Source of the DNA: a virus
Length of the DNA stretch: 32,525 nucleotides
Virus record (IMG/VR): IMGVR_UViG_3300007516_000010
Coordinates: 64,417-96,941 of that record
Strand: one strand, 5' to 3'
Shown here: positions 14,345 to 22,545 of the stretch, piece by piece
How positions within the stretch are numbered: the stretch's first letter is position 1
Layout of the letters: every line of letters begins with the position of its first letter
Made by a program: the position numbers and the translations under genes
Notes under the pieces: model-generated
Seen by the model: only the letters and a program-made list of their open reading frames with translations
Databases searched by the model: none
Told to the model about the DNA's origin: nothing

Positions 14345-14372
14345 GCGGCGACAAAATCGATTTTGTCGCCGC
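14345..14372. repeat. dispersed palindrome copy 4
   Basis: Perfect 28-bp GCGGCGACAAAATCGATTTTGTCGCCGC, 6 nt after GT6 stop. Confidence 0.95.
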
Positions 14373-15656: not shown

Positions 15657-15944
15657 TTGCGGAGCGATCCGATGCGAGTACGGGATGCGGTAATTCGTGC
15701 AGACCGGGCCAGAGCCCGCTGCCAGTCAGCAGGCCGTAACAGGCCTTTCTACCGTCGACAGGCAAAGCGAGCTGAACGGCGACTGGGCCAGGCGATCATC
15801 CGGGAGTCGCTTGTCGAGCTTGACGGCGATGCGGTCCATCGCCGGATAGTGTTTAATGCGGCCGTCACCCGGCGGTCGACAATCTTGCAGAACGACTTGT
15901 GGTTGTTCATCGAATGCTTAAATCACCCCGGCGACGTGATTTAA
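15657..15944 (+). CDS. hypothetical Arg-rich protein ending at the attC-array junction
   Basis: 95-aa ORF whose stop TAA overlaps the AAC of attC-like site A. Confidence 0.45.
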   Translation: MRSDPMRVRDAVIRADRARARCQSAGRNRPFYRRQAKRAERRLGQAIIRESLVELDGDAVHRRIVFNAAVTRRSTILQNDLWLFIECLNHPGDVI

Positions 15945-16016
15945 CGTTCAAAATCACCGTGACCCGGCGGATGATTTCCAATTTCAATAAACCGTAGTCC
16001 GGGTCTGCGGTGCATT
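15939..16016 (-). mobile_element. attC-like site A (degenerate R'' end)
   Basis: 15943-16016 identical to 17677-17750; minus-strand R' reads GTTAAAT; R'' end disrupted (GCATTGTCTGC vs GCATTTTATGGTTCTGC on +). Confidence 0.75.
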
Positions 16017-16283
16017 GTCTGCTGACCAGTTGAAGCTGTCGACGCACTTCATGGTTTTGTTCTTGCCGTTTACTGGTAGCGTGTAAAGGGCATAGGTTAG
16101 TACAGTTTCAGCACCGACTTTTATCAGTTCATGGGAGTCATTGATGGTTAAAGCAACGCAGTTGACAAGCGGATTACCGCGAGGAAGCGGTAACGATTTC
16201 TTGATGCATCCTAAATCGGCTTCGATGGAGCTTATCTGCAAAGACAGCGATGGCAGTGTTTTGGGTAGTTCTGAGTTGGACAT
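15984..16283 (-). CDS. possible cassette ORF (minus)
   Basis: 99-aa ORF running into site A; overlaps a + ORF. Confidence 0.35.
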   Translation of the reverse strand: MSNSELPKTLPSLSLQISSIEADLGCIKKSLPLPRGNPLVNCVALTINDSHELIKVGAETVLTYALYTLPVNGKNKTMKCVDSFNWSADNAPQTRTTVY

Positions 16284-16431
16284 GCTTGAGTTCGATAACT
16301 TAGTTGAGTATTTAGTGCTGGCTTACGGGATATTACCGCTAGACTGCGTCAAGCGAACGTTGTTGGCTTTGGAGCGGCATGCGATGAGTCTTAATACAGG
16401 CGGCGTTTCAGTAGCAGAACGCCCGCGATAA
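16141..16431 (+). CDS. possible ORF ending inside attC-like site D
   Basis: 96-aa ORF; stop lies within the attC arm. Confidence 0.35.
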   Translation: MMVKATQLTSGLPRGSGNDFLMHPKSASMELICKDSDGSVLGSSELDMLEFDNLVEYLVLAYGILPLDCVKRTLLALERHAMSLNTGGVSVAERPR

Positions 16432-16505
16432 CCGGGCACGAAAGGTAAAATTATGAGTTCAGATAAAGATCAACAGAGTGCTCCGCGTTCATCGGATGGT
16501 TCTGC
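16414..16505 (-). mobile_element. attC-like site D
   Basis: Minus strand: GCAGAAC-CATCC-GATGAACGCGGAGCAC...GTGCCCGGTTATC-GCGGGC-GTTCTGC, 92 bp. Confidence 0.8.
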
Positions 16506-16707
16506 TCCGGGTGCGGTAGCGGGCGAGCAGCAAGCATGTACGAGCCTGCCATTTTCAGAGTGGCTAGGCGGTGAAGCCATTACGCCGGAAGAGGCATCGG
16601 ACAGAACGGGGTTACCAGTCAGCTTCTTCAACAATACATGGAGAGACGACCCGGATTACATTGCCAAGTATGTGACTCCGTACGAGAAAACGTCAGAGAC
16701 GGTTTAA
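16453..16707 (+). CDS. hypothetical protein initiating inside attC-like site D
   Basis: AAAGG RBS and ATG in the attC loop; ITPEEASDRTGLPVSFF resembles an HTH fragment. Confidence 0.55.
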   Translation: MSSDKDQQSAPRSSDGSAPGAVAGEQQACTSLPFSEWLGGEAITPEEASDRTGLPVSFFNNTWRDDPDYIAKYVTPYEKTSETV

Positions 16708-16952
16708 GTCGAGGCATCTTCAGATGGGAACATCACTATCAGCAGTCCGTCAGAGGATTGATTGATAGCTGCAGTATCGGGAATCCTGTATTCCGACACT
16801 AAAGTCGATCCTTGCGACGTTTACGCAAATAATTTGCCGTCGCGTTTGACTACTCGACAATCGTGCCAAGGGTCTGGACTGCCAGTGATATGAAGCTTGA
16901 CACTTCCAGCATTCAGCAGGTCTTCTTCCGATGTGTTACCGTGGTATTGCAT
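16704..16952 (-). pseudogene. cassette gene with premature stop
   Basis: MQYHGNTSEEDLLNAGSVKLHITGSPDPWHDCRVVKRDGKLFA*TSQGSTLVSEYRIPDTAAINQSSDGLLIVMFPSEDAST*; internal TAA at 16821-16823; ATG 18 nt after the R' box of site C. Confidence 0.55.
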
Positions 16953-16970
16953 GTGTCTTCAGTTTCAGCA

Positions 16971-17059
16971 GCAGAACGTTAACGATCAGCGGTCGACCGT
17001 CGCTGATTCTTCAATTCCAAGCGGATGATCGGTCGCTCCGTTGCGTCGCATGGTTCTGC
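16971..17059 (-). mobile_element. attC-like site C
   Basis: Minus strand: GCAGAAC-CATGC-GACGCAACGGAGCGACCG...CGGTCGACCGCTGATC-GTTAAC-GTTCTGC, 89 bp. Confidence 0.82.
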
Positions 17060-17429
17060 TCCGCGTGGAGTGGGGCCGGGGAGAATTAGAGATATGGTTG
17101 AATCTACTGAGAAATCGATTCTCGATCCGAATCCGGAAGTTCCGTACAATTGCATTGTGGGCGAACCGTTGCCAGGTGTTAGTGGGCTAGAGTGGCAGGA
17201 TGAGAGCCTTCTTGAGTCTGGTCAAACAGGCTTTTACTTAGTTTACAGCCCAAAAACTCACCAAATCCTCTTTACGCATTTAGTAGGTCCACAAGACCTA
17301 ACAGTGTTACGCGTAGGTGATCGTGACCAGGGTTATCGTCTGCTTGGACCGTTACCCAAGCCGCCGGTATATTTTTGCCCGGGAACAACCAACGGACTTG
17401 ACATCGACCCTAACTGGCACTGGGAGTAG
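17025..17429 (+). CDS. phage-type hypothetical protein; frame opens inside attC-like site C
   Basis: GFYLVY...LLGPLPKPP; alternative start ATG 17094 after GGGAG. Confidence 0.6.
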   Translation: MIGRSVASHGSAPRGVGPGRIRDMVESTEKSILDPNPEVPYNCIVGEPLPGVSGLEWQDESLLESGQTGFYLVYSPKTHQILFTHLVGPQDLTVLRVGDRDQGYRLLGPLPKPPVYFCPGTTNGLDIDPNWHWE

Positions 17430-17649
17430 CGTTATCAATGCACTGTTTCGCTTCAGCTTCCGTGTTGAAAATTAGTGTGCTTTCGACAACGACTTTCGAC
17501 CATGTATCGGACCTTCCCCAAAACATCGCAGGAATCTGTCTGTAAGTCACAGGTGACTCAATAGATCCATGCTCAATCGCTTTGCTTGGCACTGAGGTAG
17601 GATCTGACACGATTACCCATTTATTGTCTCGAAGTTTAAGCGGCTTCAT
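17410..17649 (-). CDS. cassette-encoded hypothetical protein
   Basis: ATG 17649 just downstream of site B R'; MKPLKLRDNKWVIV...FNTEAEAKQCID. Confidence 0.55.
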   Translation of the reverse strand: MKPLKLRDNKWVIVSDPTSVPSKAIEHGSIESPVTYRQIPAMFWGRSDTWSKVVVESTLIFNTEAEAKQCIDNATPSAS

Positions 17650-17672
17650 AAGTGGTTTCCCAGTCTCAGGTA

Positions 17673-17762
17673 GCAGAACGTTCAAAATCACCGTGACCCG
17701 GCGGATGATTTCCAATTTCAATAAACCGTAGTCCGGGTCTGCGGTGCATTTTATGGTTCTGC
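17673..17762 (-). mobile_element. attC-like site B
   Basis: Minus strand: GCAGAAC-CATAA-AATGCACCGCAGACCCGG...CCGGGTCACGGTGATT-TTGAAC-GTTCTGC; L'' one base longer than L', 90 bp. Confidence 0.85.
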
Positions 17763-17782
17763 TCTACGATGAGCGGCGAGAA

Positions 17783-18016
17783 TCATACGGAGTCAGTAAG
17801 ATGGCAATAAGCAGCATAAGCAGCCCGAGCATCTGCATTGGGCTTGATTTTGGTGGTGGAACACCAGGTCAAGAAACCGTCAATTGTTACGTAGGTCTTT
17901 ACGACGGAGTTAGGGTCATCGAGATTACGAAACCGCTCTTCGATGTACTCGACCCACTCATCGTATGTAAGCGTGAATTCTTCCGGGAATGCACGAACGA
18001 ACAATTTAACCACCAC
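17783..18016 (-). CDS. cassette-encoded hypothetical protein (possibly 5'-truncated)
   Basis: TYDEWVEYIEERF...VTIDGFLTWC...NADARAAYA looks protein-like; stop 20 nt before R'' of site B, the classic cassette layout. Confidence 0.6.
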   Translation of the reverse strand: MVVKLFVRAFPEEFTLTYDEWVEYIEERFRNLDDPNSVVKTYVTIDGFLTWCSTTKIKPNADARAAYAAYCHLTDSV

Positions 18017-18046
18017 AACGAGATATAACCAGGAAATGCAAAAGCA

Positions 18047-18214
18047 ATGCCCTACTGTAAGGAATGTAAAAGAGAGCTGGACTGCGAGGACACCAACGGT
18101 AGAGACCTAGAGACCATGGGCGGTCTATCTGTCGAATACTACGTGTGCGAAGAATGCAACATCCCCTACGAACTAATAGGGGACAACCTGTACAGAACAG
18201 ACGACCAATCATGA
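18047..18214 (+). CDS. small zinc-ribbon protein (55 aa, below ORF-track cutoff)
   Basis: MPYCKECKRELD...YYVCEECNIPY; AGGA upstream. Confidence 0.7.
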   Translation: MPYCKECKRELDCEDTNGRDLETMGGLSVEYYVCEECNIPYELIGDNLYRTDDQS

Positions 18215-18315
18215 GTTTCAGAGAACTAATGAAATTCGCAGCAATATTAACGGATAATCGCTCAGTATTTGCGAGCTTTCCGCTTATTGCCGTGTAACTC
18301 TTTTAGGAACCAAAC

Positions 18316-19722: not shown

Positions 19723-19752
19723 GTCGGCGACAAAATCGATTTTGTCGGCGAC
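19723..19752. repeat. dispersed palindrome copy 5
   Basis: Core 19728-19747 perfect, arms GTCGGCGAC; at the boundary between accessory and virion/RNAP regions. Confidence 0.95.
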
Positions 19753-20649: not shown

Positions 20650-22545
20650 ATGTCTGATCTTACCATTGGCCAGCACATGCTGTCGGCTATGCTTCCGCCG
20701 GACGCTTATCGTCCTGGCCAGGTGATCGACAAGAAAAGCATCAGCCAGATCTTTGGCGACTTAGCGGCCAATCATGCGGACGATTACAAAGAGATATCCC
20801 ACCAGGCGATGTTGTTCGGGCGGGACTCGGCGAAGATGAGCGGCGGCGGGGCGTTCTCGATCCGCCACATGGCGACTCCCAAGCGGGCCCAGGCCAGGCG
20901 AGACGTCATTCGGCAAACGATTAGCGACATATTGCTGACAACTCCCGAAGCGGACCGCGACCAAGCGATTATCGACGTACTGGCCAAGGCTCAGTCGACG
21001 GACAAGGACGAGACGGTTGCCGAGGCAGAGGAAGAAGGTAATCCGTTTGCGACCATGCTCAAAGGAGCCGGCCGTGGAAACCCAGCTAGTATCGCTAGGC
21101 TGATCTCCAGCGACTTGATGTACGCTGACGCGTCTGGCCGCCCAATTGCTATCCCCGTACTTAACTCGTACAGCCGCGGGCTAACCCCGAGCGAATACGC
21201 CGCGTCGACGTTCGGTGTACGCAAGGGACTGGTCGACGCCAAGGTAGGAGTCGGCACGGGTGGCTACGCCGCTAAGCTGTTGCTTGCCGCGGCTCATCGC
21301 ATGGTTGTCACTGACAACGATGCTCCGCCAGAGCTGGAAATGCTTTCCGCCGGTCGTGGTTTACCTGTCGACGTCACCGACACTGACAACATCGGAGCTT
21401 TGCTGGCGGCCGACACGGGGCCGTACCCGCGTAACACTACGATCACGCCAAAGATTCTCGCCCACCTGCAGAAACTCAAGCACGACGAGATCCTTGTTCG
21501 CAGTCCACTAACGAGCGTCGATCCCGCCGGCGGTGTCTACGCCAGGGATGTCGGTTTCCGCGAACAGAACCGTTTACCAGCGATCGGCGAGTCGGTCGGG
21601 GTTACCGCTGCTGGGGCAATCTCAGAACCGGTCACGCAATCCCTGCTTAGCTCCAAGCACAAAGGCGGCCTCGCCGAGGCCCAGTCCGACGAGTTGACCG
21701 GGTTCGCTCTCATCGACCGGCTGATCAACACGCCCAAGGAGTTCCGCGAGGCGGGGACGCATACGGAAGTCGACGGCAAGGTCGAATCGATTAAGCCCGC
21801 TGAGCAGGGCGGCTCGTACGTCACCGTCGCCGGCCAGCAGTACTATGCTTCGCCCAACGCCAAAGTCACCGTCAACTTAGGCGACGACGTCGAAGCGGGC
21901 GACATGCTCACCGGCGGCACACCCAACCCGCGGATGGTAATTCGGCACAAGGGGCTAGGTGAAGGTGGGCGGCAGTTGGTCAAGTCGTTACACAAGGCGA
22001 TCGGCAAAGACGCTCACCGCAGGAACATCGAGTTGATTGTGCGTGGTTTGGTCGACCGAGTACGCGTGACTGAGGAGTTCGACGACTATGCACCTGAAGA
22101 CGTTGTCCCGTACAGCGAGGTGATGAGCAGGTGGCAACCGCGAGAGGGTTCCAGCGTGGATGGGCTGCACCGAATCCGCGGCAAGTACCTGGAGCAGCCT
22201 GTGCTGCATTATTCCGTTGGCACGCGAATTACGCCGTCGGTAACCAAGATGCTACAAAAGCACAACGTTCAGCAGATCACGACGCATAACTCGCCGCCGC
22301 CATTTGAGCCTGAAACGGTTCGGGCGACCGACGTGCTGCGAACCGATCAGGACTGGATGACGCGGCAGGTGGGAACAGGACTCCAGCGTGGATTACTTGA
22401 ATCGGCACACCGCGGACGAATTAGCGACGAGGATTCGACGAGTTTTGTGCCCGCGAGGGCTCACGCAGTAAACTTTGGGAGCGTCGGCAAAGTCCAGTTG
22501 TCGCCTCCCAAGCCATCCTCATTGCCCAACTTAGGCTATCAATAA
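20650..22545 (+). CDS. DNA-directed RNA polymerase beta' subunit, C-terminal half (phage-encoded, split)
   Basis: IDKKSISQ; NPFATMLKGAGRG; GLTPSEYAASTFGVRKGLVDAKVGVGTGGYAAKLL (bridge helix); VRSPLT; GESVGVTAAGAISEPVTQSLLSSKHKGG (trigger loop); HRRNIELIVR; no NADFDGD. Confidence 0.92.
   Translation: MSDLTIGQHMLSAMLPPDAYRPGQVIDKKSISQIFGDLAANHADDYKEISHQAMLFGRDSAKMSGGGAFSIRHMATPKRAQARRDVIRQTISDILLTTPEADRDQAIIDVLAKAQSTDKDETVAEAEEEGNPFATMLKGAGRGNPASIARLISSDLMYADASGRPIAIPVLNSYSRGLTPSEYAASTFGVRKGLVDAKVGVGTGGYAAKLLLAAAHRMVVTDNDAPPELEMLSAGRGLPVDVTDTDNIGALLAADTGPYPRNTTITPKILAHLQKLKHDEILVRSPLTSVDPAGGVYARDVGFREQNRLPAIGESVGVTAAGAISEPVTQSLLSSKHKGGLAEAQSDELTGFALIDRLINTPKEFREAGTHTEVDGKVESIKPAEQGGSYVTVAGQQYYASPNAKVTVNLGDDVEAGDMLTGGTPNPRMVIRHKGLGEGGRQLVKSLHKAIGKDAHRRNIELIVRGLVDRVRVTEEFDDYAPEDVVPYSEVMSRWQPREGSSVDGLHRIRGKYLEQPVLHYSVGTRITPSVTKMLQKHNVQQITTHNSPPPFEPETVRATDVLRTDQDWMTRQVGTGLQRGLLESAHRGRISDEDSTSFVPARAHAVNFGSVGKVQLSPPKPSSLPNLGYQ

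Follow-up and report, generated by a model that had tools for sequence, protein, structure and literature searches.

A canonical integron gene cassette consists of one promoterless top-strand gene upstream of its attC site, and in integron theory the selection of the attC strand serves to keep the cassette genes facing Pc. The attC sites reportedly also affect the translation of downstream cassettes, an effect associated with Jacquier et al. 2009. It impedes ribosomes on the top strand, whereas in the phage array described here the attC start serves the bottom strand.

The closest described systems are the phage CALINs of Qi et al. 2023 (PMC9892861), which, like our array, are attC clusters without an integrase in a phage and carry cassettes with small unknown genes, and also DNA methylases; these phage attC sites were shown to recombine with IntI1. 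The text of that publication contains none of the words “opposite”, “antisense”, “start codon”, or “Planctomyc”, and the bottom-strand genes, the starts inside attC, and the “two-faced” cassettes (with a gene on each strand) found here are absent from it. The sedentary chromosomal integrons of Planctomycetota (Ghaly et al. 2021, PMC8352920) have the same attC type, about 90 nt long with bottom-strand geometry, and Planctomycetota arrays hold cassettes identical or homologous to ours. Unlike the phage array, the bacterial cassettes carry one top-strand gene, and a start codon in the attC loop occurs in only one of 203 sites. Nivina et al. 2016 (PMC5027507) described top-strand inverted insertion at R'', where, as in our case, a gene faces against Pc; there the whole cassette is inverted together with its attC, whereas here the attC orientation is constant, and the gene runs backwards with respect to its own attC. 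The ORF-less cassettes with antisense promoters (PMC8876359) are similar in that cassette elements shape antisense expression, but they supply promoters, whereas here attC supplies, on the bottom strand, a ribosome site, a start codon, and an N-terminal peptide. Already known are the phage CALINs with their activity (PMC9892861) and the Planctomycete attC type (PMC8352920); new at this locus are cassettes with a conserved gene per strand, common to phage and host-type arrays. In the mainly open-access literature searched, no paper was found that describes two-faced cassettes or bottom-strand genes with their start in attC.

The window (the whole analysed stretch of 32,525 nucleotides) is the end of a virus record of 96,941 bases, which is 49% complete. 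The attC sites were identified by R''/R' boxes with the conserved AAC/GTT and by L boxes at 5–6 nt with an extrahelical base:

15943-17990, 2.05 kb: the insert, a row of Planctomycete integron cassettes
15943..16025, minus strand: copy of attC B, damaged at its R'' end; 15943-16016 is identical to 17677-17750
16414-16505, top strand minus: attC D, found by the geometry scan; phage-type, with AAAGG and ATG in the unpaired bottom-strand loop
16971-17059, top strand minus: attC C, found by the geometry scan; bacterial-type loop, with an in-frame ATG at 17025 lacking a ribosome site
17673-17762, top strand minus: attC B, found by the geometry scan; bacterial-type site

Sites D, C, and B form long imperfect hairpins (RNA fold z of -2.5, -3.0, and -4.8, respectively, versus shuffles). 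The closest relatives of D are the phage sites L237 and L242, and those of C and B are bacterial sites. When a motif derived from the three sites was searched, 20 of the 22 genomes matched belonged to Planctomycetota, and in genomes G001-G005 an integron integrase model (TIGR02249) scored above cut-off adjoining arrays of the same site type in the canonical orientation. Since in G001 and G002 the + pattern of the window lies upstream of intI and on the intI strand, + is the bottom strand. Sites D, C, and B are thus Planctomycete-type integron attC sites, for which recombination by IntI is predicted. No match at the Rfam gathering score was obtained in the window or in six loci. We also observed that a similar top-strand leader after GTT is common to the cassettes at window positions 16420, 16977, and 17679 and in L017, L025, and L312, and that the 3' ends of the same cassettes before R'' are alike too, except for body B of the window, as if one process made them.

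The sequence common with other arrays stops at or just past the AAC of R', and the neighbours and their order differ. All attC sites of the array point one way, which is not the picture left by an inverted cassette (top-strand insertion), and no intI with attI adjoins the array as in a complete integron. The array has the composition of a phage CALIN: three whole attC sites and one damaged in a virus record with an RNA polymerase and phage-type genes. Its cassettes depart from the canonical form, as DC holds two convergent genes, CB two ORFs, and E a bottom-strand ORF; only cassette B has the canonical form, in its whole version (L017). The array is thus a CALIN which works like an integron cassette array read backwards, with non-canonical cassettes. 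A tyrosine recombinase (PF00589) has no match within the 96.9-kb record, and a phage-encoded integrase may lie elsewhere in this phage, its record being 49% complete.

Cassette DC includes two genes:

16453..16707, plus strand: D+ gene, 84 aa, with the first 18 residues encoded by attC D
16704..16952, minus strand: DC- gene, canonical top-strand gene of 82 aa, broken in the window

The initial annotation of this DNA placed the start of D+ within the loop of site D, which holds, and counted 8 nt between AAAGG and ATG, where the spacer is in fact 7 nt; AAAGG is a weak ribosome site. As it stated, the stops of D+ and DC- meet at a shared TTAA (16704-16707). A homolog of D+ found with the body alone as query (P0019) likewise begins in an attC loop, and its locus (L315) holds a whole DC cassette, in which a D-like attC with GAGGGAG-ATG in its loop is followed by the + gene and a top gene converging on it. 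Over a block of 31 codons, D+ differs from the L315 gene by 16 silent and 7 replacing codons, 20 of the 31 base changes falling at third positions, and the silent sites are saturated. Residues 43-59 of D+ form a conserved block, which by eye is helix-turn-helix-like and has no family match. A repeat protein that matched D+ (P0018, E 3.5e-9) was rejected as spurious.

The minus ORF at 16952-16704 is present as annotated but not intact in the window, since a TAA at 16821-16823 interrupts it after 43 codons. This TAA is common to L001, L002, L003, and L006 (four of the five other strain contigs covering it), but not to phage strain L004 or five host-type copies; L004, L010-L013, and L018 have the unbroken gene of 82 aa. 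DC- is 55% identical to its L315 homolog with a dN/dS of 0.15, and its only lead in the ESM Atlas is a PRC-barrel-like fold at a TM of about 0.5, too weak for assigning a function. The dN/dS ratio per strand, the check proposed with the initial annotation, is thus 0.15 for DC- and 0.14 for C+ (see below), the silent sites of D+ being saturated. These substitution patterns mark cassette DC as two-faced, with D+ and DC- both genes under purifying selection.

Cassette CB has a similar convergent layout:

17094..17429, plus strand: C+ gene, 111 aa, with its own GGAG-ATG start in the cassette body
17410..17649, minus strand: CB- ORF, 79 aa, top-strand ORF of cassette CB

Both the + ORF (17025/17094-17429) and the minus ORF (17649-17410) are present as described before, with an overlap of 20 nt. 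The ATG at 17025 in the loop of site C, proposed as an alternative start, has no ribosome site and is missing in the other attC versions carrying CB, which places the start at 17094; the label “phage-like” given to the 17094 protein finds no backing in PHROGs or Pfam. Among the C+ variants, 13 of 18 changes are silent versus 29% expected (P=1.8e-4), and its substitution pattern marks it as a gene under purifying selection. A C+ homolog (P0014, 78%) lacks the start in the body and has at its N terminus the leader of a D-type attC, and a 79-aa minus ORF with the identical 20-nt overlap is called beside it. The CB- variants comprise 3 silent and 5 replacing changes without an excess at silent sites, and a 56-nt deletion shifts the frame of CB- in L017, while in L016 the ORF is also broken; CB- is probably a gene. 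For C+, the ESM Atlas gave only leads under threshold, and the AlphaFold model has a pLDDT of 40.

The two outer cassettes differ from this layout:

16144..16431, plus strand: E+ ORF, 95 aa, with a GGGAG ribosome site, stopping inside site D
17744..18028, plus strand: B+ frame, a shadow in phase antisense to the 91-aa gene
17783..17990, minus strand: B- remnant, the 3' part of a 91-aa top-strand gene; the start and the 5' end of the cassette are lost at 17990

The B- gene is whole in L017, and its homologs (L312, L313) are 70–81% identical with a dN/dS of about 0.3; the one in L312 adjoins an integrase gene. This integron integrase gene (L312:1256-2521) is in pieces. The + frame said to open inside site B at 17744 is indeed open to 18028, but it is no gene: its ATG is part of the ATGGTT that terminates 91 of the 203 bacterial attC sites, and as a conserved gene it was rejected because it has stops in both homologous cassettes while the 91-aa minus gene is kept there. 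Hence coding on both strands, suggested for the array as a whole, stands for DC, where both genes are under purifying selection, and fails for B, where the + frame is a shadow. Cassette E recurs at 96% before another attC in L317/L318. After codon 30, the changes in E+ are 4 silent and 1 replacing, and the long minus frame of this cassette has a stop in all copies; on these few changes, we tentatively regard E+ as probably a gene.

The initial annotation considered the array a possible “gene nursery”. On this reading, + transcription would turn the antisense of captured cassettes into new genes, and the loops would gain starts within the phage. The frame at 17753, which is open and called as a gene, with two silent strain changes, would agree with this, and purine-rich bottom loops (PMC5027507) would ease the evolution of ribosome sites. 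However, the + genes are old and have the same layout in host-type arrays: the silent sites of D+ are saturated relative to L315, C+ has a 78% homolog, and both are found outside the source phage. Moreover, the + genes overlap the minus genes only at their ends and hence are not their antisense frames, and B+ has stops in its homologs. An origin of these genes under phage transcription is thus highly improbable.

Look-ups of near-identical proteins retrieved two groups of sequences, further phage strains (L001-L006) and a set of short contigs (L007-L018). In the contigs, CB and DC occur in another order among top-strand cassettes (ankyrin, SMI1-like, PIN-like), and one of these arrays adjoins an IS91-type transposase. 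These and similar contigs look like bacterial arrays, although most are short and some could be phage. A homolog of cassette B occurs in an array with intI, and cassettes E, DC, CB, and B were each found with other neighbours, with ends at AAC. Such distributions mark the cassettes as mobile and their two-strand layout as older than the source phage, because host-type arrays contain these cassettes in different surroundings. In phage strain L005, the site before C+ is the C' version and the body has changes as in the host-type L007-L014, not as in the window's C, which suggests repeated exchange with the host.

The attC sites are exchanged between the cassette bodies as well. Body CB is found behind four attC types (C, C', B-type, and D-type), and L017 has bodies CB and B in the window's order but with exchanged sites (C', B). 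A “head” of the D type precedes at least five bodies or lineages: D+, the L315 gene, L025, P0014, and, in phage L237, a 117-aa gene unrelated to these. The switch between head and body lies at the R'' end, and such an exchange is explicable because top-strand cleavage by the integrase at R'' is a known minor reaction (PMC5027507). We suppose that the sites are swapped by top-strand recombination, in which excision between two top strands followed by normal reinsertion would yield the L017 layout; alternatively, homologous recombination may occur in the 13 nt common at R''.

Several searches defined the limits of this distribution. The 331 genomes searched in the G001 family yielded neither CB- nor D+, and the fixed-spacing loop-start pattern, a narrow pattern scanned without a positive control, had no match in 301 genomes of that family. 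Viral scans and PHROGs gave no D+ or C+ in other phages (the first viral patterns gave chance matches only), and no array ORF has a match in Pfam or PHROGs.

To understand how general the loop starts are, we surveyed IMG/VR by a pattern scan, counting unique site-plus-body pairs among the matches listed, related phages included; the bacterial comparison sites come from about 20 genomes. A loop start was scored when a ribosome site and an ATG in the bottom-strand loop open at least 50 codons. Among the matches listed, loop starts occur in 100 of 193 phage sites (57 of 84 loci) versus 1 of 203 bacterial sites, that one being apparently a false site, which supports an enrichment of ribosome sites and ATGs in phage attC loops; on the top strand, none of the 193 phage sites listed has one. 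The loop ATGs are in a single frame, that of D, in 95 of 103 cases, and the body, measured from the site end, is open in this frame in 92 of 103 versus 28 and 35 in the other two (again among the matches listed). The bodies with loop starts among these matches form 47 single-linkage families; those above the Pfam cut-off are N6/N4 and C5 methylases and DUF551, with HNH just below. This bears out the suggestion that phage genes (methylases, an HNH-like nuclease, DUF551) are packaged as cassettes. Within the array itself, the hairpin of D supplies a start, as do those of L315, L237, L025, and P0014, but C and B do not. Judging from these sequences, loop starts are a general trait of phage arrays with Planctomycete-type attC sites. 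An integron integrase is found in 1 of 46 phage records among the matches listed. A complete virus record of 39.8 kb with direct terminal repeats (L207, G265:C1:6698-7648) has an integron integrase above the family cut-off and carries seven attC sites with bottom-strand genes.

It might be supposed that all + ORFs are shadow or chance frames and that an ATG arises in the loop simply because the loops are rich in purines. This holds for B+, and the array ORFs lack Pfam and PHROG matches. For the array in general, such a reading is hardly credible: D+ and C+ have an excess of silent changes, bacterial sites of the same skew are without loop starts (1/203), and the starts in phage sites keep one frame and precede methylases and DUF551 proteins.

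Two-faced cassettes are rare. ORF length alone failed to part genes from shadows in GC-rich phages, and we used a composition score, which is crude enough for the B+ shadow to pass. By this score, the phage cassettes among the matches listed comprise 68 bottom-only and 2 top-only, and the bacterial ones 87 top-only and 4 bottom-only (n=146). In the host-type set, only 2 of 146 cassettes contain a convergent pair with little or no overlap; both are cassettes of the window, DC and CB, with which those loci had been fetched. L025 is a further two-faced candidate. In a virus record (L222:7096-7650), a 62-aa top ORF converges on an 88-aa bottom ORF, which represents another candidate. In the array, all three complete phage cassettes have a + ORF with a ribosome site, whereas among the four top genes a stop interrupts one, another is truncated, and a third is not evident; the whole + ORFs and decayed top genes fit sorting by the phage.

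The genes flanking the array are encoded on the + strand, and the array sits within a patch of lower GC. One junction of the insert is the following:

15918..15945: left junction, a 9-bp inverted repeat in the phage DNA; identity to site B begins exactly at AAC 15943

Here, a GTTAAAT on the minus strand, which has the GTTRRRY core, overlaps the stop codon of the phage ORF 15672-15944, and the left junction is likely a secondary integration site, the target role being suggested by this core. The right junction at 17990 is a break within cassette B. No empty integration site was found, the viral scans with C+, E+, and two flanking phage genes having given no relatives. A stand-alone gene at 20650-22545 encodes the C-terminal part of the RNA polymerase beta-prime subunit (PF04998). 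The gene run that contains the array lies between two occurrences of a 26-bp palindrome (14346-14371, 19725-19750), and a hairpin at 18240-18290, after ORF 18047-18214, has attC-like L boxes, no R boxes, and an apparently opposite orientation.

As the best explanation, which we hold to be fairly likely, cassettes are exchanged through the host integrase, and the phage retains the ones that can be read on its own strand. The host integrase, acting in trans, would put cassettes into the phage at a secondary GTTRRRY site so that the attC bottom strand comes to lie on the phage coding strand. Planctomycete phages would keep reversed cassettes with the gene on the bottom strand, site D being of that kind, and this gene would often take its ribosome site, ATG, and first 15–20 residues from the attC loop; for D+, site D would give the ribosome site, ATG, and 18-residue leader, with translation starting in the loop. 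DC and, less surely, CB would be two-faced, each gene being expressed in a different host context: the host-facing gene behind the R' end would be read from Pc in a bacterial integron, and the phage-facing gene behind attC within a phage operon. The phage would retain the cassettes for their + genes, with the minus genes decaying. Swapped between bodies at R'', a start-bearing site would act as a portable translation head.

Alternatively, the two genes may form a host unit, in which antisense promoters within the bacterial array drive the bottom gene, the two perhaps acting as a convergent regulatory or toxin–antitoxin-like pair, and the phage simply took a piece of the array. Both DC genes are under selection in host-type copies, and C+ is kept under selection in the host-type L015-L017, where CB- is broken (L016, L017), so bottom genes may be read in the host; antisense promoters are reported in ORF-less cassettes (PMC8876359), and viral scans and PHROGs detected D+ and C+ in no other phage. 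However, bacterial arrays are nearly devoid of loop starts (1/203) and of bottom genes (4 bottom-only of 146), whereas all three complete phage cassettes have a + ORF, site D is closest to phage sites, and an excess of promoters, looked for in the array region, was not detected. The loss of DC- where D+ stays, and of CB- where C+ stays, fits poorly with an obligate pair. We consider this alternative rather unlikely. A toxin–antitoxin cassette in the strict sense was rejected, as there is no family match, the genes are convergent rather than co-oriented, and each partner is lost alone in some copies.

Returning to the exchange by a host integrase with sorting by the phage, its biological meaning is as follows. 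About half of the phage-borne sites among the matches listed carry a translation start on the other strand, before real phage genes, and a few cassettes have a conserved gene each way and are common to phage and host-type arrays, which presents integrons as a two-way exchange with phages. Two questions thereby become testable, namely how cassettes are made and what nature the numerous antisense frames of arrays have. We put forward, tentatively and short of an even chance, that two-faced cassettes shuttle between phage and integron, the top gene being read from Pc in the host and the bottom gene from the attC start in the phage. If this is true, host integrons would store phage genes silently, and new cassettes could be built by swapping, at R'', attC heads that carry a start, which bears on the origin of cassettes.
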